IMG/VR virus record: IMGVR_UViG_3300028103_000009
Length of the DNA stretch: 64,000 nt
DNA from: a virus
Direction: 5' to 3' (one strand)
The notes under the pieces are model-generated. The model did not search any database. It worked only from the letters and a program-made list of their open reading frames with translations, and was not told where the DNA came from. Positions 5,263 to 64,000 of this stretch are shown here, in pieces; position 1 is the stretch's first letter, and every line of letters begins with the position of its first letter. The translations under genes were made by a program, and so were the position numbers.

Positions 5263-5307
5263 CGTACAGTACTATATATCTAAGCAGATTATTACAAGAG
5301 ACTTATA

Positions 5308-5901: not shown

Positions 5902-6728
5902 ATCTTATTTTTAGGATATTTTTTACGGAAGAAACTAAACAGATCCGTAATCACACGCATCTTATTTCCTACACTGTCTGATCTAGGAAATCTACTGTGA
6001 TTAGAAAAAGTATAGGCATCTTCTATTTCTTCCTCGACTGGTCCTGCAACATCAACAATAAAATCTACACCGTTTTGTTCTACTAGTTTTCTGCTAATAG
6101 GGACATATTGTACCAATGGAGTTCCGGCGCGAATCAGTGTATCGCCTTCTAGCACATGCCAAAACAGTTGTACGCTTACGGCATGCATGTACCTAGGATC
6201 AACGATTCCTGTAGCTGCTGTAAATCTAGCTTCGTTGTCATAACTAACAGGAATCTGCAATAGTAAAATGTCATCGCTGGCCTTTACACGCCATGGAGTT
6301 TCTACTTTTACAGCACTGTGTAGATGGGGGCGATCTGTGTTAGGTATTTCTTTAGGTATTAATGGTTCTGTCTGTGCAGGACTATGCCAGCTTACATAAT
6401 AATCAGTGCCGCCGAATGTATATTTGTCACTGTGCCGCTTAAACAAGAAAGGAGTTTCCCAGCTTAGGTGTTCGATGCTAGGACCTGTTTTGATGACAAA
6501 ATCTGCTGGAGCCCTAAGAACATACCCAGTTCTAGTTAGCTGCTTGATAGCCGGGCAGTTTAACACCGTTTGACGCCCTTGTTCTGGGCGGTTTCTTTCG
6601 GTATTTCCTAGCCCATTCCAATCTCTGTCTACTAGTTTAGACTGTGTGACTGGGTAGATCGCAGCAACATTCTGATCTAGACTATAGAATCTTACCCAGC
6701 TTTTTTTCTTTTTAAACAGATTAAACAT
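5898..6728 (-). CDS. Hypothetical phage protein (CP...GY / GTPL..Y.P type)
   Basis: ORF; start revised to ATG 6728 (MFNLFKKK), 5 nt after TAAATA. Confidence 0.6.
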   Translation of the reverse strand: MFNLFKKKKSWVRFYSLDQNVAAIYPVTQSKLVDRDWNGLGNTERNRPEQGRQTVLNCPAIKQLTRTGYVLRAPADFVIKTGPSIEHLSWETPFLFKRHSDKYTFGGTDYYVSWHSPAQTEPLIPKEIPNTDRPHLHSAVKVETPWRVKASDDILLLQIPVSYDNEARFTAATGIVDPRYMHAVSVQLFWHVLEGDTLIRAGTPLVQYVPISRKLVEQNGVDFIVDVAGPVEEEIEDAYTFSNHSRFPRSDSVGNKMRVITDLFSFFRKKYPKNKI

Positions 6729-10600: not shown

Positions 10601-13600
10601 GACTGGTATTGTTTATGCTCGTCCAGACAGTTATTTCGTACATAGACCATACGACGGCGGAGTACAGTTAGGTACAGGCGGGCCGGCGCATGGTTCTACA
10701 GCCATACGTATGAGTAAAAAATATATCCGTTATCAATCTGGTAAGGGAGTTATGTACAATACTGGTGCTTTATTTGCTCCTAGCTATGACCTAAGAAGTC
10801 TGACAGCTACTAGCACCGCAGTAGGTGCTACAATCACGATGGCCACTGACGATACTGATCACGGTTGTCAAGTAGGTGCGCAGATCGTTATCACAGGAGT
10901 ACAGACTTCAGGATATAATGGAGTATACACTGTCACTAGTATCATCGATGAGCGTACACTACAGTTCATAGGATCACAAACTCTAGGAGCAACCACAGCT
11001 GTTCTAGGAAGCCCATGTCAAATGGCTATCTACAAATGGCATGGTTCTACAGTACGTTCGGGAACATTTGACGATCAAAACGGTATGTTCTGGCAATATG
11101 ATGGTCAAAGGATGGCTGTCGGTAAGCGCAGTTCGACATTCCAGTTGGCAGGAACTATCAACCTTGCTGCCAACTCTAATGCAGTAACAGGAACTAACAC
11201 AAGATTTACACAACAGCTAGCAGTTGGAGATCGTATCGTTATCAAAGGTATGAGCCATGTAGTTTCTGGTATAACCAGCGACACCGCACTAACTGTTACA
11301 CCAGACTATCGTGGGGTTACTAACGTAGTCGGCGGTCGAGCATGTAAGACCATAGACTTGATCATTCCACAAGAATCATGGAACCTAGACCCACTTGACG
11401 GTTCTGGACCATCTGGTTATAATATCGACGTCACTAAGATGCAGATGATTGGTATGCAATGGACCTGGTATGGTGCTGGCTTTGTAGACTTTATGCTGCG
11501 TGGTCCAACTGGTGACTATACATGGGCACATAGATTCCGTAACAGCAACGTAAACGCTGAAGCATACATGCGTACTGGTAACCAACCAGTTCGTTATGAA
11601 GTCATTAATGAAGGTGCTAAAGGAAGACTTTCTGCAGCGATGACTATCAGTCAAACTACAGTACCGATGAGCTCCGATGATTGTTATTGGTTTCCAACCT
11701 CAGGTATTGTTAGCATCGACGGAGAATTGATTAGATTTACTGGCAACAGCGGAACAGCTCTAACTGGTTGTACTCGTGCTGCAACAATGACTCAGTTTGT
11801 GGCTGGATCTAACAGGACATTCTCAGGTGGCGCAGCAGCCACACATAACTCAGGAGCAGGTGTTGTGCTGGTTTCAAGCACAGTTACCCCTATTATTAGC
11901 CACTGGGGCTCGGCATTCATGATCGACGGTCAGTTTGACAGTGACCGTGGTTATCTGTTTAACTATGTGGCTTCCGGTATCACAGTTTCTACAGCTAAGA
12001 CCACGGCATTCCTGATACGTCTAGCACCTAGTGTTTCAAACGCACAGACAGGTGACCTTGGTGAAAGAGAACTATTAAACCGTGCGCAGTTGTTACTACA
12101 GAATATTTCTATTACATCTGATTCAGGAACCACTGGCGGTCTAGTTATTGAAGGAGTTCTAAATCCACAGAACTATCCAACAGATCCTACAAAGATTACA
12201 TGGAACGGTCTAGCATCGAGTGCCGCTGGTGGCCAACCTAGCTTTGCACAAGTAGCTTCAGGCGGTTCTGTAACATGGGGCGGTAACTTCAGCCAGACAA
12301 CTTCTACAGTACAAGGTGCGTTTACCACAACGCTTACAGCCAAGAGCTTTGCGGCATCTACACAGACGTTAACAGCTACTGGTTTTGCTGCGGTTACTAG
12401 AACAGCACAGGCACAGTCATTTGGTACACTAGGACAAAGCGTAACAGCACTTGGTTTTGCCAACGGTCAGCCATATGGTAACAACACTTACGTCAGTGCT
12501 ATCAGTACAGCACGTAACGATTTCTTGATTACCAACACTCAGTACGATGCATTAACATTGGTGCCACAACCAGGTGATGCTGTCACTGGTGCCAACATCG
12601 CTGCTAACTCAGTTATTAGTAGTGTGACCAGAGCCTACAACGGTGGTTTATATACTCGTATCGTAATGGATCGAAACGGTTCGGGAACATCAACCGCTGG
12701 TTCAGGAAATAACGTTCCGGTGACTATCACTACAGCATATTCTTCAACGTATCGTAGCGCATTGAGTACAGCACGTAACGATTTCTTGATTAGCAATACC
12801 GATTATGATACGATACTGGCCAGCACACCGTTGGCTATCGGTGATCCAACCAGTGCTACTACTTATATCACTGGTGGACAAACGGTCACTGGATTTACAA
12901 GAAGTTATATCACTATCAACTCGGTAGCATACACCAGAGTAACTCTAAGTGGTGTGGCTACAGCAACATCACCTGTAGCAGCGACCAACGGTGCTCAAAA
13001 CGTCACAGTAACATTTACTAGCTCTGTGGCGGCTCTGTATAATAATGCTATCAGCAGCACTAGAGCAGACTTCTTGATTCCGCAGAGTCAATACAACGGT
13101 TTTGGTGGAAACTTAAAAGTCACTGACGTTCTAAGTGCTACAACCTATGTCACGGGTGGACAGACTGTTTCCAGTATAACTCAAAACTATACTACTATCA
13201 ATACTACAGTCTATGCACGTATCGTCATGACAGCCAACGGTAATGGTAACAGTCCTGCAGGTGCAAACCCAGTTACTGTTACATCAACATCGGCGTTGAC
13301 AGCAGCCTATGGTTCGGCATTGACAACTGGTCGAAGTGATTTCTTGGTAACAGATACAGAATGGAACGCCTCCGGAATCTTAGCAGGCGATACTCTTTCG
13401 GCTACTACATTTATCACGGGCGGTCAAACCGTTTTATCAGTGACTACCGGCTATGCTGTAATCAGTACAGTTTCATACACTCGAGTCGTAATGAGTGCTA
13501 ACGCTAATGCTAACTCAACCAGCGGTAGCGGTAATGATGTGACTGTGACTGTTACGGCAGCAGGCTCGAGAGCTAGCTACACCAATACTAACTATCTGTT

Positions 13601-14027
13601 CTTTGACAGCACTTCTTGGGCGTCAGGAGGAGCTACTATTGGTACATTCTTAGCGACAACAGTGACTAGCTTCCCAGCTGGTACAGCGGTCGGCGCTATC
13701 AGTACACGTACCTTTGGAGCGACTACGGTGTATCGTGTGTCGTTTACACAGTCATCAAACGCTACCATCAATGCTGCGGCAACGATTACATGGCAGTTTG
13801 GTGCCGCTTATGCGCTACCAGGTGAACAGGTATTCTCATTCATTAGCTTACCAGGCGGATCAGACAGCTTAGATCTATCAGGGTTGAAAGAACTCACATC
13901 AACAAGTATTGGTGGTCGTGGTACCTTTCCGAATGGTCCAGACGTGCTAGCGATCAACGTCTATAAGACATCTGGATCAAATACTACTTCTAACGTGATT
14001 ATCCGTTGGGGTGAGGCACAGGCTTAA
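7659..14027 (+). CDS. Giant (2122 aa) virion structural / fibre or baseplate-associated protein with internal repeats
   Basis: Thr/Gly/Ser-rich beta-type composition, two KCRRD..GGN repeats, four C-terminal ~90-100 aa repeats; GAGGA RBS; structural gene context. Confidence 0.7.
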   Translation: MAKKQISYFKFTPGAVPPAYGQYPNTVALLTANKSFLIEEMNAYITQQIAASQAPFTGYSYTTTRQAKCRRDTGYIIDSIIYDLTYGGNSASYQIASRFYLNSAIQILTPSVEVATYQWLLGKIATNILTNTPYTRLNNVSGATQVTIAGNPAEALGIHGTNVLFNITINAINIGLSSLPTVVAPNPQNGGLAPNTVKLLDDNKRFIQEEVIAYIAYNVANNIAPFAYYTYNAAKCRRDISYMVDAYIHDIASGGNNKTVNYASKYFENGIPQVDGDRQPEVYAHTFLRDLVENYILSNVAFAARQTAVPQVIEPSVPAEVFGATLVSTLANGLIDVLVNGLTALPTKISNRGYVKFPGFYKQKDILLITNTSRNVIMYNFSDPDTAAEVTYDGFYDSDFPAALYGNEKITTVTFDIDTSGMMVTDQIQIFVEGKEQIVHMNNSSSDAMERVKVGIPQSMLDADFEYGLQPTKWQTISMMRNYPSVYEIPGSDLPVSSVVTDASAGTGNIGSSLITVTTVANHGFAVNDVFTIKALAASVKGFSRAEGTFLVASVPSSTTFTYYAKSRVGTSNPTTLSQTYTQLRKAGFYTGASVGTPSFNVYSNGQSGTVTTSLITASGASIIGFTGSAPPAGAPITGTGIPTGSQISSVVGNGGTVTATTLITTAEIGDNTIQVTNTSGITPGLVIDRGDGTSVAVTDITSNTILLSGLLTSQIKGTNETYANIVQSATSGSGSGATFTVSRLGATYQAVIGNNTGNSYVANDTITLPGTSLGGTSPTNNATVTVVTANDLNIPQVLGAVTPGSGGYVDDVNVATAGGTGTGLTVDITTDLGGLVLTAVINTAGKDYTAGDIVTITGGNGDATVQIDTVSPGGEILTFTIAGTPITAPNVTFISAFTINDFTSTSIADASTLNYTSISTLEVTFQTPHGFIPGDSLTIQITSSGSNAQLAAGSYYVEQVPTPTTLRYTARSQGTIANTLTGIVYARPDSYFVHRPYDGGVQLGTGGPAHGSTAIRMSKKYIRYQSGKGVMYNTGALFAPSYDLRSLTATSTAVGATITMATDDTDHGCQVGAQIVITGVQTSGYNGVYTVTSIIDERTLQFIGSQTLGATTAVLGSPCQMAIYKWHGSTVRSGTFDDQNGMFWQYDGQRMAVGKRSSTFQLAGTINLAANSNAVTGTNTRFTQQLAVGDRIVIKGMSHVVSGITSDTALTVTPDYRGVTNVVGGRACKTIDLIIPQESWNLDPLDGSGPSGYNIDVTKMQMIGMQWTWYGAGFVDFMLRGPTGDYTWAHRFRNSNVNAEAYMRTGNQPVRYEVINEGAKGRLSAAMTISQTTVPMSSDDCYWFPTSGIVSIDGELIRFTGNSGTALTGCTRAATMTQFVAGSNRTFSGGAAATHNSGAGVVLVSSTVTPIISHWGSAFMIDGQFDSDRGYLFNYVASGITVSTAKTTAFLIRLAPSVSNAQTGDLGERELLNRAQLLLQNISITSDSGTTGGLVIEGVLNPQNYPTDPTKITWNGLASSAAGGQPSFAQVASGGSVTWGGNFSQTTSTVQGAFTTTLTAKSFAASTQTLTATGFAAVTRTAQAQSFGTLGQSVTALGFANGQPYGNNTYVSAISTARNDFLITNTQYDALTLVPQPGDAVTGANIAANSVISSVTRAYNGGLYTRIVMDRNGSGTSTAGSGNNVPVTITTAYSSTYRSALSTARNDFLISNTDYDTILASTPLAIGDPTSATTYITGGQTVTGFTRSYITINSVAYTRVTLSGVATATSPVAATNGAQNVTVTFTSSVAALYNNAISSTRADFLIPQSQYNGFGGNLKVTDVLSATTYVTGGQTVSSITQNYTTINTTVYARIVMTANGNGNSPAGANPVTVTSTSALTAAYGSALTTGRSDFLVTDTEWNASGILAGDTLSATTFITGGQTVLSVTTGYAVISTVSYTRVVMSANANANSTSGSGNDVTVTVTAAGSRASYTNTNYLFFDSTSWASGGATIGTFLATTVTSFPAGTAVGAISTRTFGATTVYRVSFTQSSNATINAAATITWQFGAAYALPGEQVFSFISLPGGSDSLDLSGLKELTSTSIGGRGTFPNGPDVLAINVYKTSGSNTTSNVIIRWGEAQA
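12495..13560 (+). repeat. Four tandem ~90-100 aa domain repeats within the 2122-aa protein
   Basis: SAISTARNDFLI / SALSTARNDFLI / NAISSTRADFLI / SALTTGRSDFLV; exact 27-bp duplicate agtacagcacgtaacgatttcttgatt at ~12504 and ~12765. Confidence 0.8.
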
Positions 14028-50732: not shown

Positions 50733-50837
50733 ATGATTAAAAAATGGTTAAAGTGGTTTCGTGAATGGAGAGAACTGAGAGCTTTTAGAAAGAAAGTAGC
50801 CAGACTAAAAGATAAGGATCCGTTCATTTACAAATGA
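50733..50837 (+). CDS. 34-aa basic peptide coupled to the carbamoyltransferase
   Basis: MIKKWLKWFREWRELRAFRKKVARLKDKDPFIYK; fills the gap exactly; ATGA overlap. Confidence 0.55.
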   Translation: MIKKWLKWFREWRELRAFRKKVARLKDKDPFIYK

Positions 50838-52297
50838 TTACTTGGGGTATTTCAGCAAACAGTCATGATGCTGCTCTAGCAGTATTCTGTGACGAGAAAC
50901 TAGCATTCGCTAGCCAAAGCGAAAGATTTAGTGGTGTCAAGAATGATCCGCATCTGGATTATTCTATGATCGCATACGCAGAACAACGATGGGGTAAACC
51001 AGGACGCATCTATTGGTATGAGAACCCGCTAAAGAAAAGTATACGACAGCTATTTGCAGGACAGATTGAAAATATAAAAGAAAATAATATCAAGAGGTAC
51101 CTTAGTACATATAATATCAATGCACCTATTCGTTACACTGATCATCATCGTAGTCACGCCGCTGCTGGTTATTTTACTAGTCCATTTGATCGCGCTTGTG
51201 TTCTCGTGATTGATGCTATCGGTGAGTTTGAAACACTAACGATATGGAAAGCTGACGGATTAGAACTTAAGAAGGTATACAGCCAAAGATATCCTAACTC
51301 TATAGGCCTATGGTACAGTGCTATGACGCAACGTGTGGGACTAAAGCCCAATGAAGAAGAATATATCCTAATGGGCATGTCAGCGTATGGCGATGATAGC
51401 CTGACTAACAAAGTATACGATGACTTTATTAGGAATGCTGATCGTTTTGAGTTTAAAGATAATCTGCATAGAGGCTGTAAGACTTGGGCTCCTGAACTCT
51501 TAGAAGACGCTAACTTTGATATAGCTTCTGCCACGCAGAAAGTATATGAAACATTATTCATGACTGCGCTAAAGAAAGCAAGAGAGTTAGTAGATTGTGA
51601 AAATCTCGTTCTCATGGGCGGCTGTGCCTTAAACTGTGTGGCCAATAGATTAGTATATCGATATTTTGATAAACTATGGATCTATCCTAGTCCTGGCGAC
51701 AGTGGATCAGCTATCGGCGCAGTATTGGCACATCATCCTGTTTGGCGGTTTGGTACCTATTGGGATGAACCATTCTTGGGCTACGATATGGGATATCACA
51801 CTACTGAAGAACATATCGTCGATTATCTTATAGAACATAAGATTTGTGGACTAGCTAGGGGTCGTGCAGAGTTTGGACCTAGAGCACTAGGCAATAGAAG
51901 TCTTATTGCAGATCCCAGAGGTAATGATATAAAGGAAAGAGTAAATGATATTAAACGAAGACAAAAATTTAGACCCTTTGCCCCTGCAGTTTTGGCTGAG
52001 TTATCTAATGATTATTTTGATATCCCTGGTGGCCGCAGTCCTTATATGCAAATGGTCGCTAAGTGCAGGAATCCTGAGCTTTATCCTGCTATCGTTCACG
52101 TTGACGGGACTTCTCGTGTACAGACAGTTGAAAAAGACGGATCTCCATTTAGACGACTCTTAGAGATATGGTATGCACGTACAGGCTGTCCAATGCTGTT
52201 AAACACCAGTCTTAATATCAAGGGAGAGCCTATGGTAAACGACATAGAAGATTCTGAGCGTTGGAGTCAAAAATATGGTTTACCTGTGTTTAACTAG
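50834..52297 (+). CDS. Carbamoyltransferase (NodU/CmcH/TobZ family)
   Basis: HDAA, HHRSHAA, DAIGE, GGCALNC, EFGPRALGNRS, FRPFAP, LNTSLN. Confidence 0.95.
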   Translation: MITWGISANSHDAALAVFCDEKLAFASQSERFSGVKNDPHLDYSMIAYAEQRWGKPGRIYWYENPLKKSIRQLFAGQIENIKENNIKRYLSTYNINAPIRYTDHHRSHAAAGYFTSPFDRACVLVIDAIGEFETLTIWKADGLELKKVYSQRYPNSIGLWYSAMTQRVGLKPNEEEYILMGMSAYGDDSLTNKVYDDFIRNADRFEFKDNLHRGCKTWAPELLEDANFDIASATQKVYETLFMTALKKARELVDCENLVLMGGCALNCVANRLVYRYFDKLWIYPSPGDSGSAIGAVLAHHPVWRFGTYWDEPFLGYDMGYHTTEEHIVDYLIEHKICGLARGRAEFGPRALGNRSLIADPRGNDIKERVNDIKRRQKFRPFAPAVLAELSNDYFDIPGGRSPYMQMVAKCRNPELYPAIVHVDGTSRVQTVEKDGSPFRRLLEIWYARTGCPMLLNTSLNIKGEPMVNDIEDSERWSQKYGLPVFN

Positions 52298-55728: not shown

Positions 55729-56085
55729 TTATTTTACCAAATGTTGTGCTAGTACCATGCAGCTGAGCCAGGCCCACATGGTGTTAAAACTAACCAACGT
55801 GGGCAACAGTTTCTTGTTTGAAGCCCAGATCAATGTTAGGCTAGTAAACAGAGTAAGGAAATACAACCACCAAATCTGTATGCCGAAAATCAAACCTGGA
55901 ATGATGATTATGGCCTTGCAGAACCAACTGGCAAACTCTACTTTGTTGTAGAGAGGTTGCCAATATTCACGAGTTAAAAACATGCTAAAGCAGTCACGGA
56001 TTTCTCGGAAGCCAGTGAGCCTATATGTGATCACAGTTAATGCTAGCCAAACGGTCGTGGCCCAAACTATCTGTTCTAGAGTCAT
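55729..56085 (-). CDS. Membrane protein
   Basis: Several hydrophobic segments; AAGGGA RBS. Confidence 0.6.
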   Translation of the reverse strand: MTLEQIVWATTVWLALTVITYRLTGFREIRDCFSMFLTREYWQPLYNKVEFASWFCKAIIIIPGLIFGIQIWWLYFLTLFTSLTLIWASNKKLLPTLVSFNTMWAWLSCMVLAQHLVK

Positions 56086-56184
56086 AATATTCCCTTGTTA
56101 AAGTTGTATATAGATACTTAGCTTAATCTGATCAGTTAATGGCTCAGAGCTGGCTGAGCTAAATACTAGACAACGGAGCAGAAC

Positions 56185-56388
56185 ATGGAATATGCGATCT
56201 TGGCCTACAGCCTCAAAGAAAACCAACTACAGCGAGAACTCAATCTGGAAAAAAATCCTCCAGTCACAGATCCTGCATATGCACAAAAGATCGCTGATGC
56301 TTTCGCATATCGTCTAAATCTCAACAAGTTCCTAAACACACAGGACTGGGTGGGACGCATCGAGCTGATCAACAACCCCGTGGTATAA
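56185..56388 (+). CDS. Hypothetical protein
   Basis: TAAATA at 56160, GGAG RBS. Confidence 0.6.
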   Translation: MEYAILAYSLKENQLQRELNLEKNPPVTDPAYAQKIADAFAYRLNLNKFLNTQDWVGRIELINNPVV

Positions 56389-56390
56389 AC

Positions 56391-56717
56391 GTGATTAGGT
56401 TCACAGAACGAGCCCGAACTAAAATACAAGAACTACTCAAACAGCGTGGCCGTGGTGTGGGCATACGCATAGGCACCAACACACGTGGCTGCTCAGGACT
56501 GAGCTATGTGTTAGAATACGTAGACACCTACACAGCAGAAGAGGGAGTGACCAACTTCGCACAGCCCGAGTTCGTGGTCTTGGTGTCATTCCGAGATCAG
56601 GTTTATCTCTCAGGGCTAGAAGTAGATTGGGTCAAGAAGGGTCTAAACGAAGGCTTCGAATTTACCAACCCAAACGAAACCGCACGTTGTGGCTGCGGTG
56701 AAAGCTTCAAGGTCTGA
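56391..56717 (+). CDS. iscA: Iron-sulfur cluster assembly A-type carrier (IscA/HesB)
   Basis: RGCSGLSY, GFEFTNPN, RCGCGESF. Confidence 0.95.
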   Translation: MIRFTERARTKIQELLKQRGRGVGIRIGTNTRGCSGLSYVLEYVDTYTAEEGVTNFAQPEFVVLVSFRDQVYLSGLEVDWVKKGLNEGFEFTNPNETARCGCGESFKV

Positions 56718-57012
56718 GATAGTCCGCTAGCCAAAAGGCCGCAAACATTAGTCCAATAGTCAAGGCAGTGATCACACTGATCCAACGCACATCCTGTTCA
56801 TCGGGCAGCTTGTACCAAAACTCATAGGCCGCATCATAGACCCAGCCTTCAGGCGGATCTAGGGGATCATATAAGTGTGGGTGGCTAGCGGGCGTGGGCT
56901 GGACACTGTATCTCCGACGATAGGCTTCACGATGCTCTTCAGCGGTCATAGGGGGTAGCAGTTCCTGTGCGAGGTCTGCGTTTAACTTATCAAGTGCTGT
57001 TTTCGGGTCCAT
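56707..57012 (-). CDS. Hypothetical protein with C-terminal TM helix
   Basis: AGGAGG RBS. Confidence 0.6.
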   Translation of the reverse strand: MDPKTALDKLNADLAQELLPPMTAEEHREAYRRRYSVQPTPASHPHLYDPLDPPEGWVYDAAYEFWYKLPDEQDVRWISVITALTIGLMFAAFWLADYLRP

Positions 57013-57235
57013 GTCGTCCTCCTGCCCATCTCATAGCTAGTAGTAGCTGATCTGATCTAGAGCCGCCACGCACTTCTATGGGTTCTGTGCCCCAGACATG
57101 TGTGTTACGGCTGATCCAAAAGTTTCCAGGATGCGATTGGCACCACTGTATAAACTCATGCCGTTCTAGACTGTTAGCAGGCCAACAGTAGCAGAGCCAA
57201 CGATGCTCACCCAGATCCTTTACTCGTATTTTCAT
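56990..57235 (-). CDS. Hypothetical protein (leaderless)
   Basis: Start revised to MKIRVKDL, 6 nt after TATACT. Confidence 0.55.
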   Translation of the reverse strand: MKIRVKDLGEHRWLCYCWPANSLERHEFIQWCQSHPGNFWISRNTHVWGTEPIEVRGGSRSDQLLLAMRWAGGRHGPENST

Positions 57236-57241
57236 AGTCTT

Positions 57242-57270
57242 AGTATACACGATGCTGACTTGTTTGTCAA
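57242..57270 (-). promoter_or_regulatory. sigma70-type promoter
   Basis: TTGACA-17-TATACT (extended TG). Confidence 0.8.
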
Positions 57271-57344
57271 GGCGCAGCCGCGCGATTTTTTTTTCGGCGA
57301 AGCAGCGCAAAAATTTAGCGCGAAGCGCACAGCGGTAAGATTTT

Positions 57345-57545
57345 TTAGCTTCTAGTAAGACCAAAGTATTCCATAGCTAGCCAGCATACAACACAGACCG
57401 CCCCAATCTTGGCCATGAACATGGCGAATGCATTTAGATCGTTGTCCAGCTTATCGGGCATGGGATACCAAGTATCTTCCTCCCTACTGTAGTAGTACTT
57501 ACGACCTCTTATTTCCTCTATATCCATAATATTCTTCTCGTTCAA
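57345..57545 (-). CDS. Small membrane protein
   Basis: ORF with C-terminal hydrophobic helix. Confidence 0.5.
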   Translation of the reverse strand: MNEKNIMDIEEIRGRKYYYSREEDTWYPMPDKLDNDLNAFAMFMAKIGAVCVVCWLAMEYFGLTRS

Positions 57546-57723
57546 TGACGGCTACTGCTCCCTCGCACTCTAGCAAAAACTGTGTTTCTAAGGTGTTGCG
57601 CGGCACTAGTATGCGTGTCCTATTTAGATGCACTTCGTAGTGTAGACCATACCTCTCTGCGAAGCGTAGAGCACGCTCTAGACTGGGATCCGAAGTGTAG
57701 ACAGCATATTCTCTATAGGGCAT
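57499..57723 (-). CDS. Hypothetical protein
   Basis: Start revised to MPYREYAVY. Confidence 0.5.
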   Translation of the reverse strand: MPYREYAVYTSDPSLERALRFAERYGLHYEVHLNRTRILVPRNTLETQFLLECEGAVAVIEREEYYGYRGNKRS

Positions 57724-57761
57724 GATTGTATATAGCTTAAATAACCTAATGGAGGCAAAAA

Positions 57762-57941
57762 ATGACAGAAACACACAAGAGAACCATAGCTAGAGCTGTG
57801 ATATGGAGAGTGATAGCTACCTGTGTAACAGCCATATGGGCAGGATGGTCAGGAGCGATCTGGGCCAACATAGTGCTGACAGCGTTACATTATGTGCATG
57901 AAAGACTATGGCTAAGAGTCAGCTGGGGAAGGCAGATCTAG
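57762..57941 (+). CDS. Second DUF2061-like membrane protein (59 aa; absent from ORF track)
   Basis: MTETHKRTIARAVIWRVIAT...HYVHERLWLRVSWG; GGAGG RBS; TAAATA at 57738. Confidence 0.75.
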   Translation: MTETHKRTIARAVIWRVIATCVTAIWAGWSGAIWANIVLTALHYVHERLWLRVSWGRQI

Positions 57942-57944
57942 AGA

Positions 57945-58031
57945 TCACTGCAGGATCATGACCGCGATGATGACTAGGAACACTAGCAGCCACAGTGTAT
58001 AAGATATTAGGAAATGGATGTCTATGCGCAT
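57945..58031 (-). CDS. 28-aa hydrophobic peptide
   Basis: MRIDIHFLISYTLWLLVFLVIIAVMILQ; TAAGTA 4 nt upstream. Confidence 0.35.
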   Translation of the reverse strand: MRIDIHFLISYTLWLLVFLVIIAVMILQ

Positions 58032-58082
58032 CTGTTACTTATCGAGTTGACAACCTAGACCATAAGATAGTATCATATAACT

Positions 58083-58469
58083 ATGCGACAACAAACTAAA
58101 ACTTGTGCGATGTGTCTAGTGGAAAAGCCAGAATCGGCTTTTGGCAGAGACGGCGGTCGACATGGGTATCTACGCTATGAATGCAGAGAATGCGCTAGAC
58201 AGCAGAGTCGAACTCTAAGAGCTATTAAAAGGTCAGCAAAGCCGCCCGAGAAAGATCATCGCTGTGCTATCTGTCTAAGAAACTATGATGAAATGCAGGG
58301 TCACAGTCTGCGTAGAAAAAACTGGGTCTGCGATCATGATCACGAAACAGGCCTATTTAGAGGTTGGCTATGCCATAAATGCAACATGGGCTTGGGAAAT
58401 CTAGCAGACGATGTAGAACGGTTACAGCGAGCTATCAAGTATATAGAACAGAGTAGAAAAGGGTCCTAG
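58083..58469 (+). CDS. Endonuclease VII-like (His-Me finger) nuclease
   Basis: CAIC, DHDHETGLFRGWLCHKCNMGLG; sigma70-like promoter just upstream. Confidence 0.85.
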   Translation: MRQQTKTCAMCLVEKPESAFGRDGGRHGYLRYECRECARQQSRTLRAIKRSAKPPEKDHRCAICLRNYDEMQGHSLRRKNWVCDHDHETGLFRGWLCHKCNMGLGNLADDVERLQRAIKYIEQSRKGS

Positions 58470-58615
58470 CGGGATAAAATTTTGGCCGCGCAAAAAATTT
58501 GGGTGGAGTACTTTTCTTTTCAGGGTGGTGATTTGCTACCCCTGTTGCAAAAATACAACACTGTACGCACTATAGCCCCCCACCCCCATCGGCCGAACCT
58601 TCACCGACCGAGACC

Positions 58616-58828
58616 TCAACACCGATCCGTCATGCCGGGTCTCTTCTGGTCGTCTCTGAGGTGCCCTGAACAGATCCTTTCTGCTGCGCCCGACCAAGCA
58701 GGGATCTGATCCGTCAACTGATAAGGCGGTCTCGGGTCCCAGGGCGCATCTCTACGATCCCTAACAGCGCAGCCCGCAGCACAGCTAGCGGCTAGCGTTA
58801 CGGATAGCAGTCTTAGCAGCATCTGCAT
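58616..58828 (-). CDS. Putative lipoprotein
   Basis: Signal peptide with AAGC lipobox-like site. Confidence 0.5.
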   Translation of the reverse strand: MQMLLRLLSVTLAASCAAGCAVRDRRDAPWDPRPPYQLTDQIPAWSGAAERICSGHLRDDQKRPGMTDRC

Positions 58829-59015
58829 ATGTGTCTAGCCCCTGTTCTTGTTCTGTGCATTCCCACGCAGCGATCTGCAGCAGGCTACGGCCATCGCAGC
58901 CGTCCTTATAGGGCAGTGCTGCCAGCACAGCTTCAGCTTGTCCTAGGCTTTGGCAGTTCCATAGTATGTCTATGATCTCGCGCTGCCTATGTGTGAGTCC
59001 TGTGATCTGTATCAT
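58785..59015 (-). CDS. Hypothetical protein (leaderless)
   Basis: Start revised to MIQITGL, 6 nt after TATACT of a TTGACT-17-TATACT promoter (59022-59050). Confidence 0.6.
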   Translation of the reverse strand: MIQITGLTHRQREIIDILWNCQSLGQAEAVLAALPYKDGCDGRSLLQIAAWECTEQEQGLDTYADAAKTAIRNASR

Positions 59016-59227
59016 AGTCTTAGTATAGCTCCAATAGCATAGATAGTCAATAGTCCCGCGTTCACAGCTACCAAGTTCCAATCGCGTACGGTTAGACTCC
59101 AGTATAGGTACAGGACGCTGCCTAGGTTCAGCAGCAGGATGTTCAAGGGATCCTGTCCCAGTGCAGTTGCCGCAGCACCCGCTAGGGTACATATGAGCGC
59201 CAAGTGTTTGGCCGCAGCAGCGATCAT
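59012..59227 (-). CDS. Small membrane protein
   Basis: MIAAAAKHL...; ATGA-coupled to the upstream peptide. Confidence 0.55.
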   Translation of the reverse strand: MIAAAAKHLALICTLAGAAATALGQDPLNILLLNLGSVLYLYWSLTVRDWNLVAVNAGLLTIYAIGAILRL

Positions 59228-59295
59228 AGCAAGAGTGTGGCTGCGAATACCACGGGGGGCGCAAAGATCATCGCAACGGCTAAGAGTGTCTGCAT
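59224..59295 (-). CDS. 23-aa hydrophobic peptide
   Basis: MQTLLAVAMIFAPPVVFAATLLL; AAGGA RBS; downstream of promoter 59321-59349. Confidence 0.45.
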   Translation of the reverse strand: MQTLLAVAMIFAPPVVFAATLLL

Positions 59296-59354
59296 GAGTA
59301 GTCCTTGTTGTCATGTCCATATTATATGCTCGTAGACCCAAACTGTCAACCACG

Positions 59355-59528
59355 TTATGCTGCCGCGAACAGAGCGCGGAACTGGCTCATCACGTTGTGG
59401 AAACTACGCAGCTCTGAGATGGTGAACTCTTCAGTGTTGTTCTCGATGTAGATCAGGGTTTCCAGCACGGGCAGCTGACCCAAGCGTTCCTGTATGCCTG
59501 CTATGACTTTGAGATCTTGATTGATCAT
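59355..59528 (-). CDS. Small early protein (57 aa; absent from ORF track)
   Basis: MINQDLKVIAGIQERLG...FAAA; own promoter and AAGGAGCGAA RBS. Confidence 0.65.
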   Translation of the reverse strand: MINQDLKVIAGIQERLGQLPVLETLIYIENNTEEFTISELRSFHNVMSQFRALFAAA

Positions 59529-59580
59529 CATTCGCTCCTTTGTTAATATGTGTGTAGTATACTACCGTTCGCCCAAACTG

Positions 59581-59838
59581 TCAACCAGTCGGGCTGTTGC
59601 AGAATTGCCACATCTTGAACTGATCCCCGCGCAGCCCCATCAAGATTCCTTCGTAGTCCCTGTAAGAGCAGCAGGCCCAAATCTCGCGAGGTTCGTAGCG
59701 GTATGTGCCGTAGCCTTGACCCCAATCGTATTCACGTGGAGTGTTGTGCTGTGTGACTATCCTACGGGCCGTGCTGGCTCGCTTGTAGTACTTTTCCATA
59801 CGGCCCGAGCGGACCTCGTAGACGATCCAACCTGACAT
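59581..59838 (-). CDS. Hypothetical early protein
   Basis: TGATG-coupled ORF; GAGGA RBS. Confidence 0.6.
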   Translation of the reverse strand: MSGWIVYEVRSGRMEKYYKRASTARRIVTQHNTPREYDWGQGYGTYRYEPREIWACCSYRDYEGILMGLRGDQFKMWQFCNSPTG

Positions 59839-60110
59839 CAGTCCTCGACCCTAGACAGCATGTTTGCGGGAACCCTGTAGCGACCAAAGGCTGTGTTAAC
59901 GATACAGTTCTTGATCGCGACCTTTTCCACGGTGCCCACCATCAAACGTCCGGTGCGGCTGCTGGTGAATGAGATCTTGTCCCCGGCCATGAGGTTGATG
60001 GTAGCCATCTTTGACAGCTTGGTGCGCCGCTGTTTGATCAGATCGATCATTTCAGAGGTATCCTCGAGTGTGGCGTCCCTGAGGATGAAATCACGGATGT
60101 CTGTGCGCAT
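59838..60110 (-). CDS. Hypothetical early protein (SH3/KOW-like C-terminus)
   Basis: Start revised to MRTDIRD; AAGGAG RBS; own promoter. Confidence 0.65.
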   Translation of the reverse strand: MRTDIRDFILRDATLEDTSEMIDLIKQRRTKLSKMATINLMAGDKISFTSSRTGRLMVGTVEKVAIKNCIVNTAFGRYRVPANMLSRVED

Positions 60111-60172
60111 AGTTGCTCCTTTGTGTGTCAGTATGTGTATTGTACTGCCAAACTGCGAAAAGGTCAACCGAT

Positions 60173-60565
60173 TTAGGTGTTGTTTTTTTGCAACAGTAGA
60201 TCGCCACCCTCGGCCCGATCAACGATGAATTTAACCGTGTCCTTGAAGCGGCTGCGGATCTCTCGCTGTAGTCCCTCAGCTGTAGAGCTCTGTCCTACGA
60301 ACTGCTCTGTGTCCTTGCGATAGGCATAGAGCTGGCCTTGATGCTGCTCGATACGGATCTGGATCAGCTCGGGTTCGGCACTCTCATCGCTGTCCTCGGT
60401 GATCTCCCGCTCTAATTTCTCGCGTAATTTACGAAGGTCTGCGGGCTTGATGCCTAGATCCTTGAGCACTTCGCCGAGGATCATACGGAAGAACACACGC
60501 TCTACGAAGCGGCCCAGAAGGAATCCCAGGATGAATACCGTGAATAGAATTAAGATCAGTTCCAT
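60173..60565 (-). CDS. Membrane-anchored hypothetical protein
   Basis: N-terminal TM helix; AGGAG RBS. Confidence 0.65.
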   Translation of the reverse strand: MELILILFTVFILGFLLGRFVERVFFRMILGEVLKDLGIKPADLRKLREKLEREITEDSDESAEPELIQIRIEQHQGQLYAYRKDTEQFVGQSSTAEGLQREIRSRFKDTVKFIVDRAEGGDLLLQKNNT

Positions 60566-60589
60566 GAATTATTTACTCCTAAGAGAGAT

Positions 60590-60623
60590 AAAAAAAGGGC
60601 GGATGCATCGAGTACACCCGCCC
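60590..60623 (-). terminator. Rho-independent terminator
   Basis: GGGCGGGUGUA-CUCGA-UGCAUCCGCCC followed by U7. Confidence 0.85.
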
Positions 60624-60650
60624 TGTGCCTATTACCGGGAGCGAATCGGA
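60590..60650 (-). ncRNA. Candidate 3'UTR-derived antisense sRNA (seed GAUUCGCUCC)
   Basis: Seed at 60638-60647 is the reverse complement of the GGAGCGAA(UC) RBS of neighbouring genes; followed by terminator. Confidence 0.4.
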
Positions 60651-60956
60651 TTAGGCAGTAACAGCTTCACGTGTCTCGACCTTAGCTGCAGGCGCAGCAA
60701 GGGTGACGCCGTTCTTCTTGGCTACGTAAGCGATGGCAGCTTCCACTGCAGGCTTACCTGTGCCATAACCTGTAGAGTACAGGTGCTGAGCGATCTCAGC
60801 CTTGGTCATCTCGTTAGGAAGGTTGATCAAGTCAACGTCCTTGTGACCATTCTTTGCGAGGATCTTGATTCGCATCGAGTCATTTGCGAAACGGATCTTA
60901 GTCTTACCATTCAGCGTCGAAACGCCAGCTACGGAGAACTTCTTTTCAGTTGCCAT
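60651..60956 (-). CDS. Basic hypothetical protein, probably highly expressed
   Basis: Own promoter, 5' hairpin, terminator; Ala/Lys-rich tail. Confidence 0.75.
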   Translation of the reverse strand: MATEKKFSVAGVSTLNGKTKIRFANDSMRIKILAKNGHKDVDLINLPNEMTKAEIAQHLYSTGYGTGKPAVEAAIAYVAKKNGVTLAAPAAKVETREAVTA

Positions 60957-61039
60957 TTTAATGTGCCTTTCTGTGTGTGTTTAAAAGTATACCAACCCTA
61001 TTTGGTATGCTACTAATATAGCATAGCCAATCCATACTG

Positions 61040-61240
61040 TCAACCATTCGGTTTACCAAAATCTCCTAGTTTGGTGACCCGAATAGTCACAGCTTCCTTC
61101 TCATCTAGAGCAGCGATGAACTCGTCGTCATAGATAAGATCCTGCATGGCCAGATCGATCATCTGCTCGACCCTAGCCTCGTCCGCTGTGCCCTCTCCGG
61201 CACAAAGGACTTCAAACTTGAACTCAAAGGTTCGCTTCAT
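61040..61240 (-). CDS. Hypothetical early protein
   Basis: ORF in early operon. Confidence 0.6.
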   Translation of the reverse strand: MKRTFEFKFEVLCAGEGTADEARVEQMIDLAMQDLIYDDEFIAALDEKEAVTIRVTKLGDFGKPNG

Positions 61241-61532
61241 TTTCCCAAAACTCCTTGCGTAGCATGAACATCGTGTATGCTTCTTTGTTTAGGTATATAC
61301 TCGACTTTTCTGCATCCCAAGCCCAAACCGGCTGTGTGCCGTCGAAGTATTCTGGGCGAGCGCAGAACAGTTCTCCGCTGGCGCCAAACTGTTGCCAAAG
61401 CCAGTTGCGGGCGCGGACCCATTGCTTGACACGGATCACACGCCCTTGCCCTGTGTAGCCAGTGAACTCGACCCTGTGACTAAAGCGTTCATGCCCGTCA
61501 TAGCGTCGGTCCAACTTGACCACATTCATCAC
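61224..61532 (-). CDS. Hypothetical early protein
   Basis: GGAG RBS; coupled to the upstream gene. Confidence 0.6.
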   Translation of the reverse strand: MMNVVKLDRRYDGHERFSHRVEFTGYTGQGRVIRVKQWVRARNWLWQQFGASGELFCARPEYFDGTQPVWAWDAEKSSIYLNKEAYTMFMLRKEFWENEANL

Positions 61533-62152
61533 AGCGGCTGCTCCTTGGCTTCGGCACCCTCACGGATCCACTGTGTGAGCTCTTCCTCATTCTCACGCTC
61601 ATACTCTTCCATGCACTCGCTGATGCCAAAGCACTCATCCAAGTCCTCAGGAATCTCATCGCGGACCTGTTTGCTGGACATCTCGCTCAGGTCATAGTTG
61701 TCTTCACAGCCATCTTCAAAGACGCCAGCGAAGCACATGCCGGGCTCATAATACATGGCTCGCACTTCATAGCCCTGCTCGGTCAGTTCTTGGTAAACGC
61801 CCACTGGAGGAGCCCAAGCACTGTCAAAGCCCACGCTCATGCTAGTGCCATCCTCGCTGACGTCTGCAGGGTTGCAGTCATCGCCACCCACATCCCACTT
61901 GGTGCCCCAACGGCTGGTCTGGAAACTATACCAATCAGCATGTCCATACTTCTCAAGGTTGGACTTCTGCTGTGCTTCGTGGGCCTCACGCTTGTCCTCG
62001 CCCATGAAGCCTGACACTGTGTCAGTGAGCTCTTTAGGAGTAGGAATCACATGCTGGCAAAACTCTCCACGATTGAATGCGTCTGCGAGAGCACGGATTT
62101 TCTCAGGGTCCTTGTGGCTGATTTCCACATAGTTGTTGCACCAGTTTGGCAT
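61529..62152 (-). CDS. YubB/DUF1281-like ferredoxin-fold protein
   Basis: MPNWCNN, WY.....WGTKWD, FDSAWAPP, YYEPG..FAG. Confidence 0.75.
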   Translation of the reverse strand: MPNWCNNYVEISHKDPEKIRALADAFNRGEFCQHVIPTPKELTDTVSGFMGEDKREAHEAQQKSNLEKYGHADWYSFQTSRWGTKWDVGGDDCNPADVSEDGTSMSVGFDSAWAPPVGVYQELTEQGYEVRAMYYEPGMCFAGVFEDGCEDNYDLSEMSSKQVRDEIPEDLDECFGISECMEEYERENEEELTQWIREGAEAKEQPL

Positions 62153-62193
62153 AGGTTCGCTCCTTAAGTTAAGTTAGTATTATACATCCAAAA

Positions 62194-62379
62194 TCAGTCA
62201 AAGTCAACTGAACTCACTTCAACACCGTCTTCGATCTCTGTGTATAGATCGTAGATCTTACTCTGGATGATCTTCTTCTGGCCGGCTCTGATCGGGAGGG
62301 CCATGGCCAGTTCCTCGATCTGATCCAAGAGTCCATCAATCGCTTGTAGATCATGACCAACTGCATTAAAATCTCTCAT
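62194..62379 (-). CDS. Small acidic early protein
   Basis: Own promoter and AGGAGAGCGA RBS. Confidence 0.6.
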   Translation of the reverse strand: MRDFNAVGHDLQAIDGLLDQIEELAMALPIRAGQKKIIQSKIYDLYTEIEDGVEVSSVDFD

Positions 62380-62411
62380 ATCGCTCTCCTAAGTGTATGT
62401 GTATTATACAC

Positions 62412-62618
62412 TCAGCGTTTCAAAATGTCAACCAAATGTTGATTGGCCAAGTTCTGGTCTACCCGATCCACGAACCTCTGCTCGATCTCACGTGAGGCTC
62501 GATCGGCGATCTGGCTCACGGTCCTTAGGATCTTAGCCTGGGCCATCGCGGTCGTTTCCGGGGCACTCAGGGCATCCAGAGCGCGGCGTAGATAGTCCAG
62601 TTCCTCGGGCTTGATCAC
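62412..62618 (-). CDS. Hypothetical early protein
   Basis: GTGA-coupled ORF; GAGG RBS. Confidence 0.55.
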   Translation of the reverse strand: MIKPEELDYLRRALDALSAPETTAMAQAKILRTVSQIADRASREIEQRFVDRVDQNLANQHLVDILKR

Positions 62619-62812
62619 TTGTAGGCCTCTGCATTCTGGATCATCATCGCGCCACAGCCCATGATCATCAATCCCACGGTAGAAACCAAGGCACCCAGCA
62701 AAAGACCGGAGTTGTCCAAGCTCTGCTCAATGCCGCCCACACCGAAGATCGTTACGAGCAGTCCTACGATAAAGCAGAACATTCCGGATTTTTCCATTGA
62801 TGACTGTGTCAT
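62615..62812 (-). CDS. Two-TM membrane protein
   Basis: Start revised to MTQSSMEK; AGGAGCGAATC RBS; own promoter. Confidence 0.65.
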   Translation of the reverse strand: MTQSSMEKSGMFCFIVGLLVTIFGVGGIEQSLDNSGLLLGALVSTVGLMIMGCGAMMIQNAEAYK

Positions 62813-62875
62813 TGATTCGCTCCTAAGTTGTTTAGTATGTGTATTATACGACCAAAATACCAATCTGTCAACCGA

Positions 62876-63133
62876 TCAGCGCCAATCTTTTTTGTCGCCG
62901 TAGCGTTCGTTGTAGTCGTAGCCAGCCATGTATTCGGCCACGCTCTCAGGATCCGTAACCTCAACGCGGGGACCTGACTCGCCGCCAACTCCACCGTAGT
63001 GCGGCCGACGAGCCCGGCCGTAGTAAGAGTCTGCTGAGCCACGATCGTAGAGGCAACCGTGTTCTGAGCGCAGGAACTGCCAGCCCTTGAGGGCACGGAC
63101 CACACGCTCTTGTTCTGAAATCTCTGGATACAT
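62876..63133 (-). CDS. Hypothetical early protein
   Basis: HG.LYDRGSADSYYGR ... EY.AGY; own promoter and RBS. Confidence 0.7.
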   Translation of the reverse strand: MYPEISEQERVVRALKGWQFLRSEHGCLYDRGSADSYYGRARRPHYGGVGGESGPRVEVTDPESVAEYMAGYDYNERYGDKKDWR

Positions 63134-63202
63134 TCTTCGCTCCTTTTATCTAACTATGATGCTAGTATAGCACCAAACGTCCAAACTGTCAACCAAAATC
63201 CT

Positions 63203-63421
63203 TTAGCAGTCAGGGTCAAAATCGTGCCACTCCTGCATCTCGTCGGGTTGACCGTCGTAATCCGCATCAGAATCGCTGCTTAGGATTCGTTGGACTTCTT
63301 CTGGGGATACACCTAGCGTTTCGCTGATGGTTAGGATCGTGCCTTCGTCCTGGCCAAAATCATCACCCATATCGTGGGCCATGCTCATCACTTCCAGTTC
63401 CAGATTTGCAAAGTATCCCAT
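63203..63421 (-). CDS. Acidic early protein
   Basis: C-terminal YDGQPDEMQEWHDFDPDC; own promoter. Confidence 0.7.
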   Translation of the reverse strand: MGYFANLELEVMSMAHDMGDDFGQDEGTILTISETLGVSPEEVQRILSSDSDADYDGQPDEMQEWHDFDPDC

Positions 63422-63508
63422 AACTCGCTCTCCTTAGTATGCCTACAGTATAGCACCAAAAATCCAAACTGTCAACCAAAATCTGCAGAAAAGAAAAAGG
63501 TGTGGCTT

Positions 63509-63751
63509 TTATGCCACACCCGCCAGTTCCATAGCGTAGCGTTCCCAGTAATCGTCGCTGTCCTCAAACTCTTCTACGAGATCGTCGTATTCATCGATGA
63601 TCTGCACGTATTCACCGCGCAGCTGGTAACGATACACATGATCGCCGTTTACGACCACGTCCCCTGATCTACGGCCCCCTACGAACTCGATCTGCTCACC
63701 ATCGATGCTGTAGATCGTGCTGTTGTCGGTATACTTGAGATGGATATACAT
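63509..63751 (-). CDS. Acidic early protein
   Basis: Own promoter and AAGGAG RBS. Confidence 0.6.
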   Translation of the reverse strand: MYIHLKYTDNSTIYSIDGEQIEFVGGRRSGDVVVNGDHVYRYQLRGEYVQIIDEYDDLVEEFEDSDDYWERYAMELAGVA

Positions 63752-63871
63752 GGGCTTGCTCCTTTGTTTACCCGTGTAATGTAGCAGCTATAGCCCGAGC
63801 TGTCAACCAATCTTTTTGCAGGGCTGGTATGCTGTACACGCATAGCTAGCCCCGGTCAATTCGCTGCAGAA

Positions 63872-64000
63872 TTACCTTCGGGGTTTAAGAAGAGCCTGGC
63901 TCTCCTTGCGCAGCCTGCCCGCTTCCTTGTACATACGGTCAGCATCCTCAGCTAGGGCCTTAGATCGTTCCTGTGATAGTTTGCTGCCCCCAAACTCACG
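63872..64000 (-). CDS. Hypothetical protein (5'-partial)
   Basis: Open frame REFGGSK...LLKPRR* entering from the right edge. Confidence 0.45.
   Translation of the reverse strand, partial: REFGGSKLSQERSKALAEDADRMYKEAGRLRKESQALLKPRR

Follow-up and report, generated by a model that had tools for sequence, protein, structure and literature searches.

A stem-loop behind a jumbo phage early gene displays a loop complementary to a conserved extension of early Shine-Dalgarno sequences

A stretch of 64,000 nucleotides (nt) from the uncultured virus IMGVR_UViG_3300028103_000009, here called the window, raises the question whether the end of one phage messenger RNA (mRNA) can address a set of other early mRNAs of the same phage. 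Six minus-strand early genes in the window carry a ribosome-binding site (RBS) in which the Shine-Dalgarno (SD) sequence is extended to GGAGCGA or GGAGAGCGA, in the following called the tag. The complement of this tag is displayed in the 3' untranslated region (3'UTR) of an early gene encoding a protein of 101 amino acids (aa). Judged from the comparison of related phage sequences, the loop and the tagged early RBSs very probably pair with each other. The complete reading, in which this 3'UTR-embedded RNA pairs in trans with the tagged SDs and probably represses their translation, is the one we favor, with somewhat better than even confidence.

A preliminary description of this locus, made from the letters of the window, had taken the complement of the tag for the linear 5' seed of a small RNA (sRNA) ending in a GC hairpin and a U7 tail. 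The 3'UTR starts with UCCGAUUCGCUCCCGG, GAUUCGCUCC occupies positions 60638-60647, and the RBS motifs, the seed and the hairpin with its tail were all present as quoted. In the minimum-free-energy fold, however, the supposed linear seed becomes the 9-nt apical loop of a two-tier stem-loop over the stop codon. The element consists of the following parts:

60626-60657, minus strand: two-tier stem-loop spanning the stop codon, according to the minimum-free-energy fold
60638-60646, minus strand: apical 9-nt loop AUUCGCUCC, the predicted anti-RBS seed, with the core UCGCUCC; probability of being unpaired (P unpaired) 0.99
60590..60624, minus strand: Rho-independent terminator directly downstream of the stem-loop, with a GC-rich stem of 12 base pairs (bp) at 60596-60624 and U7

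The lower stem UGCCUA/UAGGCA is formed by 60652-60657 with 60626-60631, and the upper stem CCG/CGG by 60647-60649 with 60635-60637. The seed starts 5-8 nt past the stop codon, which itself is located inside the stem.

The predicted targets are the translation initiation regions (TIRs) of the six tagged genes, listed with the free energy of the duplex between loop and TIR:

63419..63433, minus strand: predicted target TIR GGAGAGCGAGUUAUG of a 72-aa gene, GGAGAGCGA at 63425-63433; duplex -11.2 kcal/mol, net cofolding gain in free energy (ddG) -7.1
63131..63143, minus strand: predicted target TIR GGAGCGAAGAAUG of an 85-aa gene, GGAGCGA at 63137-63143; duplex -13.3 kcal/mol, with a cofolding gain
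62810..62823, minus strand: predicted target TIR GGAGCGAAUCAAUG of a 65-aa membrane protein, GGAGCGA at 62817-62823; 10 contiguous pairs, duplex -13.7, ddG -8.7
62377..62389, minus strand: predicted target TIR GGAGAGCGAUAUG of a 61-aa gene, GGAGAGCGA at 62381-62389; duplex -9.9, with a cofolding gain
62150..62163, minus strand: predicted target TIR GGAGCGAACCUAUG of a 207-aa gene with a weak DUF1281_C/Api92-like match, GGAGCGA at 62157-62163; duplex -13.1
59529..59538, minus strand: predicted target TIR GGAGCGAAUG(AUG) of a 57/58-aa gene, GGAGCGA at 59532-59538; duplex -14.3, with a cofolding gain

The pairing lengths noted earlier were correct, 8-10 nt on four targets and 6-8 nt on the two variants. 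Five of the 16 early TIRs in the window, and none of the 39 non-early TIRs, formed a duplex of -10 kcal/mol or lower with the loop; one more early TIR reached -9.9. A gain in cofolding energy was limited to the six tagged TIRs. GGAGCGA occurred in 10 copies on both strands of the window, where 3.9 were expected, and TCGCTCC in five copies on the minus strand. On the window data alone, a match of seed and motif by chance would be only moderately unlikely; its significance comes from the comparative data.

For this comparison, at least 247 relatives of the 101-aa protein were available in IMG/VR, and 100 of their loci (L numbers) were examined. The same loop was found behind the stop codon of the homologue in about 60 related uncultured phages. 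Essentially all homologues of about 60% identity and above were followed, within 1-6 nt of the stop, by (C)CG(A/G)(U/C)UCGCUCCCGG, so that the seed is conserved beside the gene. In the alignment of the homologue 3'UTRs, TCGCT of the loop was invariant, while the terminators beyond the conserved hairpin were completely different between phages.

The hairpin is a conserved RNA structure and not a DNA word, because its stems covary, its cognate arms pair and its seed is accessible. The upper stem changed from CCG/CGG to UUGG/CCAA, UCAG/CUGA or UACGG/CCGUA; five of the six pairs were compensated, and none of 500 shuffles reached the observed score. The lower stem joins the last codons to sequence 3' of the hairpin and diverges widely between phages. 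RNAalifold on a MAFFT alignment recovered the upper stem alone, as the lower stems were out of register, and a test of cognate against non-cognate arms was used instead. Cognate lower-stem arms paired with a mean of -11.0 kcal/mol vs -7.4 for non-cognate arms, and none of 2000 permutations gave a value as low as that of the cognate arms. Rather than being buried in structure, the seed core was unpaired with a median P of 0.93 across 41 distinct sequences. Variants of the seed were C-to-U changes (UCGCUCU, UGCCCUU), in which pairing is kept through G·U.

More distant lineages bearing the homologue lack the hairpin behind the 101-aa gene, and those that use GGAGCGA have the AUUCGCUCC loop at other sense-strand sites. 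In L079, L080, and L090, an nrdC.10-like AAA ATPase gene has a tandem of two hairpins in its 3'UTR, of which the second is nested in the terminator; a 14-bp terminator stem carries the loop in L070, and in L075 it follows a 96-aa gene. An extra copy of the loop was present behind a 90-aa open reading frame (ORF) in L005 and L007. The ATPase, a protein of about 340 aa related to T4 nrdC.10, hosts tandem seeds in its 3'UTR in L074, L078, L081, L089, L090, L094, L098, L069, and L070. In the distant lineage L089, a sequence resembling a transfer RNA (tRNA) was observed from position 5298, directly 3' of the 101-aa homologue in place of the hairpin.

The loop and the RBS tag were switched together at least twice, as far as the sequences of these lineages tell. 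Lineages with the tag GAGGGCA(A) (L074, L078, L081, L089, L094, L098) contain no UCGCUCC; the 3'UTR of their orthologous ATPase gene has two to three (U)GCCCUC seeds instead, positioned in loops or directly past the stop codon. Intergenic TCGCTCY was found at 52 of the 53 GGAGCGA-type loci and at none of the six GAGGGCA-type loci, and intergenic TGCCCTY at 19 of the 53 and at all six, respectively. The switch also reached an orthologous target, as the L089 counterpart of the 207-aa gene carries GGAGGGCAAU. The other switch (CCUCGCU/AGCGAGG) separates L070 and L069, whose ATPases are 90% identical. L070 has the seeds UACCCUCGCUC and AUUCGCUCC together with 13 GGAGCGA RBSs and two of the AGCGAGG type. 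In L069 the second seed is lost, and the early RBSs are mostly AGCGAGG(UA), matched by the retained first seed CCCUCGCU at -12 to -13 kcal/mol.

On the target side, the motif proved to be lineage-wide and specific to early genes, and not an artefact of local duplication. Of the roughly 150 GGAG RBSs located close to a promoter in 21 phages, 76 were GGAGCGA and 17 GGAGAGC, which makes GGAGCGA the commonest early RBS in the related phages. On a 280-kilobase (kb) contig, the 12-kb early region accounted for 8 of 11 plus-strand copies of GGAGCGA, and the hairpin was the only antisense copy nearby. Whether a gene carries the motif was kept gene by gene across orthologue leaders (18 of 21 for the 85-aa gene, 27 of 46 for the 207-aa gene, 3 of 42 for the 130-aa gene downstream of the 101-aa gene). 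The preliminary description was right that early genes share a tag, but too broad in extending it to a whole early-gene class; tagging is gene-specific and covers 6 of about 14 early TIRs in the window. It had also named three outcomes at sequence level that would speak against it, namely an unconserved seed, a buried seed and duplication without covariation; all three were checked, and none was observed. In the targets, the position of the motif is fixed to the start codon by SD spacing and not to the promoter. The CGA extension of the SD presumably has no match in the canonical 3' tail of 16S ribosomal RNA.

Pairing between the two RNAs seems hard to avoid, because the complementarity is conserved, displayed by a structure, portable between 3'UTRs and was twice switched together with its targets. 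Translational repression would be the most likely outcome, because the pairing covers the SD. In the proposed mechanism, the mRNA of the 101-aa early gene would end in the stem-loop showing AUUCGCUCC, followed by the strong intrinsic terminator. The loop would pair in trans, loop to linear strand and over 7-10 nt, with the extended SD GGAGCGA(A) or GAGAGCGA, a tag that would serve as a private mark on a particular, conserved group of early mRNAs transcribed from sigma-70 promoters. Covering the SD would block binding of the 30S subunit and perhaps accelerate decay. The RNA would be expected to accumulate, as it has an early promoter and stabilizing ends (the 5' hairpin and the strong terminator), and translation of the tagged early genes might thus be shut off progressively, an RNA counterpart of T4 RegA/RegB. 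We infer pairing in vivo, its repressive effect and the active species, which could be either the entire mRNA or a 3' fragment released by processing.

Several findings weigh against this mechanism. The stoichiometry is unfavorable, with one RNA facing six motif-bearing early mRNAs in the window, or about ten per early region, that are driven by similar promoters. Seven to ten bp to a hairpin loop of 7-9 nt is short, and where the loop measures 7 nt, pairing of the first G of GGAG would require the closing pair to open. On a translated mRNA a terminating ribosome would cover the seed; such masking could possibly couple the seed to translation. The mRNA of the seed-hosting ATPase bears the matching tag in its own RBS, so that cis pairing between 5' and 3' ends is an alternative there, and intramolecular pairing or autoregulation is possible in the ATPase-hosted versions. 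L001 retains the loop, yet has just one or two motif RBSs in its 12 kb. In addition, no cultured relative with the element was found by megablast and tblastn against phage records, and the cultured Pseudomonas phage PA5oct is uninformative, as its nrdC.10-like ATPase gene has no 3'UTR. As a separate observation, L004 (identical to L023) was the only close relative in which the hairpin behind the stop, at 6301-6320, reads CUAG-AUUCG-CUAG and has lost CUCC, and it has GGAGCGA in 1 of its 19 early RBSs; L004 and L001 may represent a lineage with a decaying circuit.

If the pairing is real, its outcome could still be another one. The loop might protect or stabilize the tagged mRNAs, for instance by keeping a RegB-like or host nuclease away from GGAG. 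Alternatively, the tagged leaders might act together to titrate the 101-aa mRNA or to regulate it through its stability or through terminator read-through into the 130-aa gene. Complementarity and co-switching fit any consequence of pairing, and the 130-aa gene, which has no promoter of its own in the window, does need read-through. Early leaders are short and unstructured, though, so that activation by unfolding would be unneeded, and among characterized RNAs, those known to pair across an SD nearly always act as translational repressors; we regard a non-repressive outcome as unlikely. Less probable still is a cis-acting or protein-binding hairpin (a 3' stabilizer, a signal for termination of transcription or translation, or an operator to which an RNA-binding protein of the phage attaches), combined with an RBS extension selected separately for translation efficiency and an incidental complementarity. 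Such a role would agree with the conserved place of the hairpin at the stop codon beside the terminator and with the overlap of its lower stem with coding sequence. An incidental exact complement of seven nt would not be expected to persist across about 60 phages, to recur in unrelated stem contexts and host genes, or to switch twice together with the RBS tag.

Lineage-level co-switching would also result from a double-stranded DNA site, GGAGCGA/TCGCTCC, that is read in either orientation by a protein of phage or host that binds or modifies DNA, and that co-evolves with this protein. We give this explanation very little weight, since the target motif is locked to the start codon instead of the promoter, and since every inverted copy is found on the transcribed strand in the loop of an RNA hairpin whose stem covaries, in many cases within a terminator; moreover, the C-to-U variants of the seed preserve RNA wobble pairing and not DNA identity. 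The last alternative, chance together with duplication of promoter-RBS cassettes, would make the shared RBS a copied part and the 3'UTR match a coincidence. The cassettes are indeed clearly paralogous in their promoter parts, and TCGCTCC is repeated on the minus strand of the window. The leaders nevertheless differ in the flanks outside the motif, which is kept per orthologue at 35-80% protein identity, while the seed is conserved, structured and co-switching; the related loci have diverged (60-84% amino-acid identity, different terminators) and are not recent recombinant copies of one segment. This explanation therefore is barely credible, even less so than a DNA site. Repression in trans by the loop remains the reading that we prefer.

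The gene that hosts the element in the window is arranged as follows:

61015..61043, minus strand: promoter of the 101-aa gene, of the sigma-70-type early class common to other early cassettes; TTGACA, 17-nt spacer, TATATT
60957..61014, minus strand: 58-nt 5'UTR with a 5' hairpin at 60987-61010 and a CA-rich leader ACACACAGAAAGG, without GGAGCGA
60651..60956, minus strand: 101-aa early protein of unknown function; the 5' arm of the lower stem is made up of its final codons

As the preliminary description had said, the RBS of this gene, GAAAGGCAC, is without the motif. The motif never occurred in the leaders of the 101-aa homologues shown, and the RBS was motif-less also in lineages that have the seed elsewhere. 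Self-avoidance as an explanation was rejected, because the seed-hosting ATPase mRNAs do carry the tag. The leader layout, a 5' hairpin of variable sequence followed by ACACACACAGAAAGAGG, was kept in the homologues L001-L020, which suggests a stabilized, strongly translated mRNA that is exempt from the tag. No consensus promoter was found inside the 3' part of the 101-aa coding sequence.

The protein itself had been proposed as a partner of the RNA. Its mean column identity among 20 homologues was 69%, and an AlphaFold model was obtained with good confidence (pLDDT 82). The protein had no match in PHROGs, none in Pfam at E<=0.01, none in the PDB by Foldseek at E<=0.001 and none by tblastn against phage records; the wide VIA-align comparison gave a best Z of just 3.3, and the ESM Atlas no usable match. 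The same seed follows other genes (the nrdC.10-like ATPase gene, the 96-aa gene, the 90-aa ORF), and no RNA-binding family or fold was recognizable in the protein. A role as partner is weakened by these results and is speculative, since the linkage to the seed is not universal and a family or fold match is lacking. An arrangement of a small protein with such an RNA does exist in CcaF1-CcsR (PMC8034643).

The window derives from an uncultured jumbo myophage and encodes a terminase, a tail sheath protein of 1133 aa, UvsX and a DnaB-like helicase. By terminase, the nearest isolate is Pseudomonas phage PA5oct (53% identity), and megablast against 50,697 phage records revealed no close DNA relative of the region. 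The minus-strand early region extends from 56 to 64 kb and is built of one-gene cassettes, each with GGTTGACA, a 17-nt spacer, TATAAT, a leader of 20-30 nt and an RBS. GC content is about 50% in this region vs about 40% elsewhere, and the step between 1-56000 and 56000-64000 points to an early module with a composition of its own. On the opposite strand within this region, an endonuclease VII gene (58083-58469, plus strand, Pfam E 1e-15) has its own TTGACA/TATCAT promoter. Further genes observed in the window were two tryptophan-halogenase-like genes side by side (1064-4068, minus strand, PHROG 2928, E 1e-102 and 1e-108), an ORF of 2122 aa with no Pfam match (7659-14027, plus strand) and a Nol-like carbamoyltransferase gene (50834-52297).

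The metagenome contig L102, identical to the window across the 500 overlapping bases compared, allowed us to read beyond the window edge. No second seed hairpin was found in the window-equivalent positions 64001-67753. A MoxR-like AAA ATPase (360 aa) and a DUF2201 metallopeptidase/VWA protein (400 aa) are encoded at L102 1601-3998 (minus strand, window-equivalent 64663-67060). The 400-aa ORF had been a candidate for the nrdC.10-like ATPase and was rejected, being the DUF2201/VWA protein adjoining the MoxR-like ATPase; within reach of the loci of the window's clade, no nrdC.10-like gene was found.

Early shut-off in large lytic phages that depend on the host RNA polymerase is known mainly from T4 proteins. 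Tentatively, and with slightly less than even confidence, we propose that a broad group of freshwater jumbo phages uses, on selected early genes, a lineage-specific 'barcode' of 3-4 nt joined to the SD, and one or more portable anti-barcode hairpins in 3'UTRs; the two would co-evolve, occasionally be switched wholesale and achieve a timed, RNA-only shut-off of early translation, with seed exposure perhaps controlled by ribosomes that terminate at the neighboring stop codon. If true, control of a whole set of mRNAs by an RNA that recognizes a private SD extension would introduce a new design principle into viral timing, and the early regulons of uncultured phages would become predictable from sequence alone. 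A tag-seed pair that nature has swapped at least twice would also offer an orthogonal, re-programmable translational switch for synthetic biology, and since compensatory pairs already occur in nature, reporter assays could test the hypothesis directly.

Searches of the literature returned no account of a phage RNA directed against an RBS tag that early genes of the same phage have in common, and a search with the Rfam 15 covariance models, including P1/P7 c4, gave two chance-level matches alone, far below the gathering score. Covariation of seed and target between lineages, which characterizes trans-acting anti-SD base-pairing RNAs, was found here (GCCCUC/GAGGGCA and the L070/L069 pair), whereas the element lacks the features that define membership of the cuckoo/CcsR and P1/P7 c4 families. 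The cuckoo RNAs (CcsR/ar14, CcsR1-4) of Alphaproteobacteria, with the small protein CcaF1, share the conserved motif CCUCCUCCC in their hairpin loops (PMC4615179, PMC8034643). The element resembles them in having hairpins with a conserved loop motif, but its loop (AUUCGCUCC or GCCCUC) complements a lineage-private tag instead of being CCUCCUCCC. The cuckoo motif can be read as a generic anti-SD sequence. Moreover, cuckoo/CcsR RNAs form two to four adjacent hairpins downstream of a DUF1127 gene, while a single hairpin is present in the window, behind a gene that is not DUF1127, and tandem seeds occur in related lineages only; here, the element is phage-encoded, aimed at the phage's own early genes, and its seed hops between host genes.

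The c4 antisense RNA of phages P1 and P7 is likewise phage-encoded and trans-acting, and its loop-displayed sequences pair around an RBS and block translation (reviewed in PMC12197685). The likeness lies in a phage RNA with a loop-displayed sequence directed against an RBS, the pairing being predicted in our case. In contrast, c4 serves the lysogenic immunity of temperate phages by controlling one operon (icd-ant); it does not belong to a 3'UTR and addresses no gene class through a shared tag. Class-wide post-transcriptional shut-off of early mRNAs through their TIRs is known from T4, where RegA is a translational repressor and RegB an endoribonuclease that cuts GGAG in early SDs (PMC3014915). 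Early genes are marked by their SD in both cases, but RegA and RegB are proteins, and the resemblance to an RNA is functional only; no RegA or RegB homologue turned up, although no search for one was made. The Hfq-dependent sRNAs derived from enterobacterial 3'UTRs (CpxQ, SroC, DapZ) end in the terminator and U-tail of the parent mRNA, and their 3'UTR seed is conserved. Their architecture, which the preliminary description had assigned to our element, agrees in the shared terminator and U-tail and in the conserved, accessible seed; it is apt only loosely, as the seed here lies in an apical loop overlapping a stop-codon stem, closer to loop-displayed antisense RNAs. In virulent Pseudomonas phages, non-coding RNAs (ncRNAs) derived from 3'UTRs were detected experimentally, namely ncRNA1/2 of PAK_P3 and 3'UTR_PHIKZ298 of phiKZ (PMC10914365). 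While these have no known targets or seed and no sequence relation to our element, they are, as proposed here, abundant phage RNAs from the 3'UTRs of lytic or jumbo phages.

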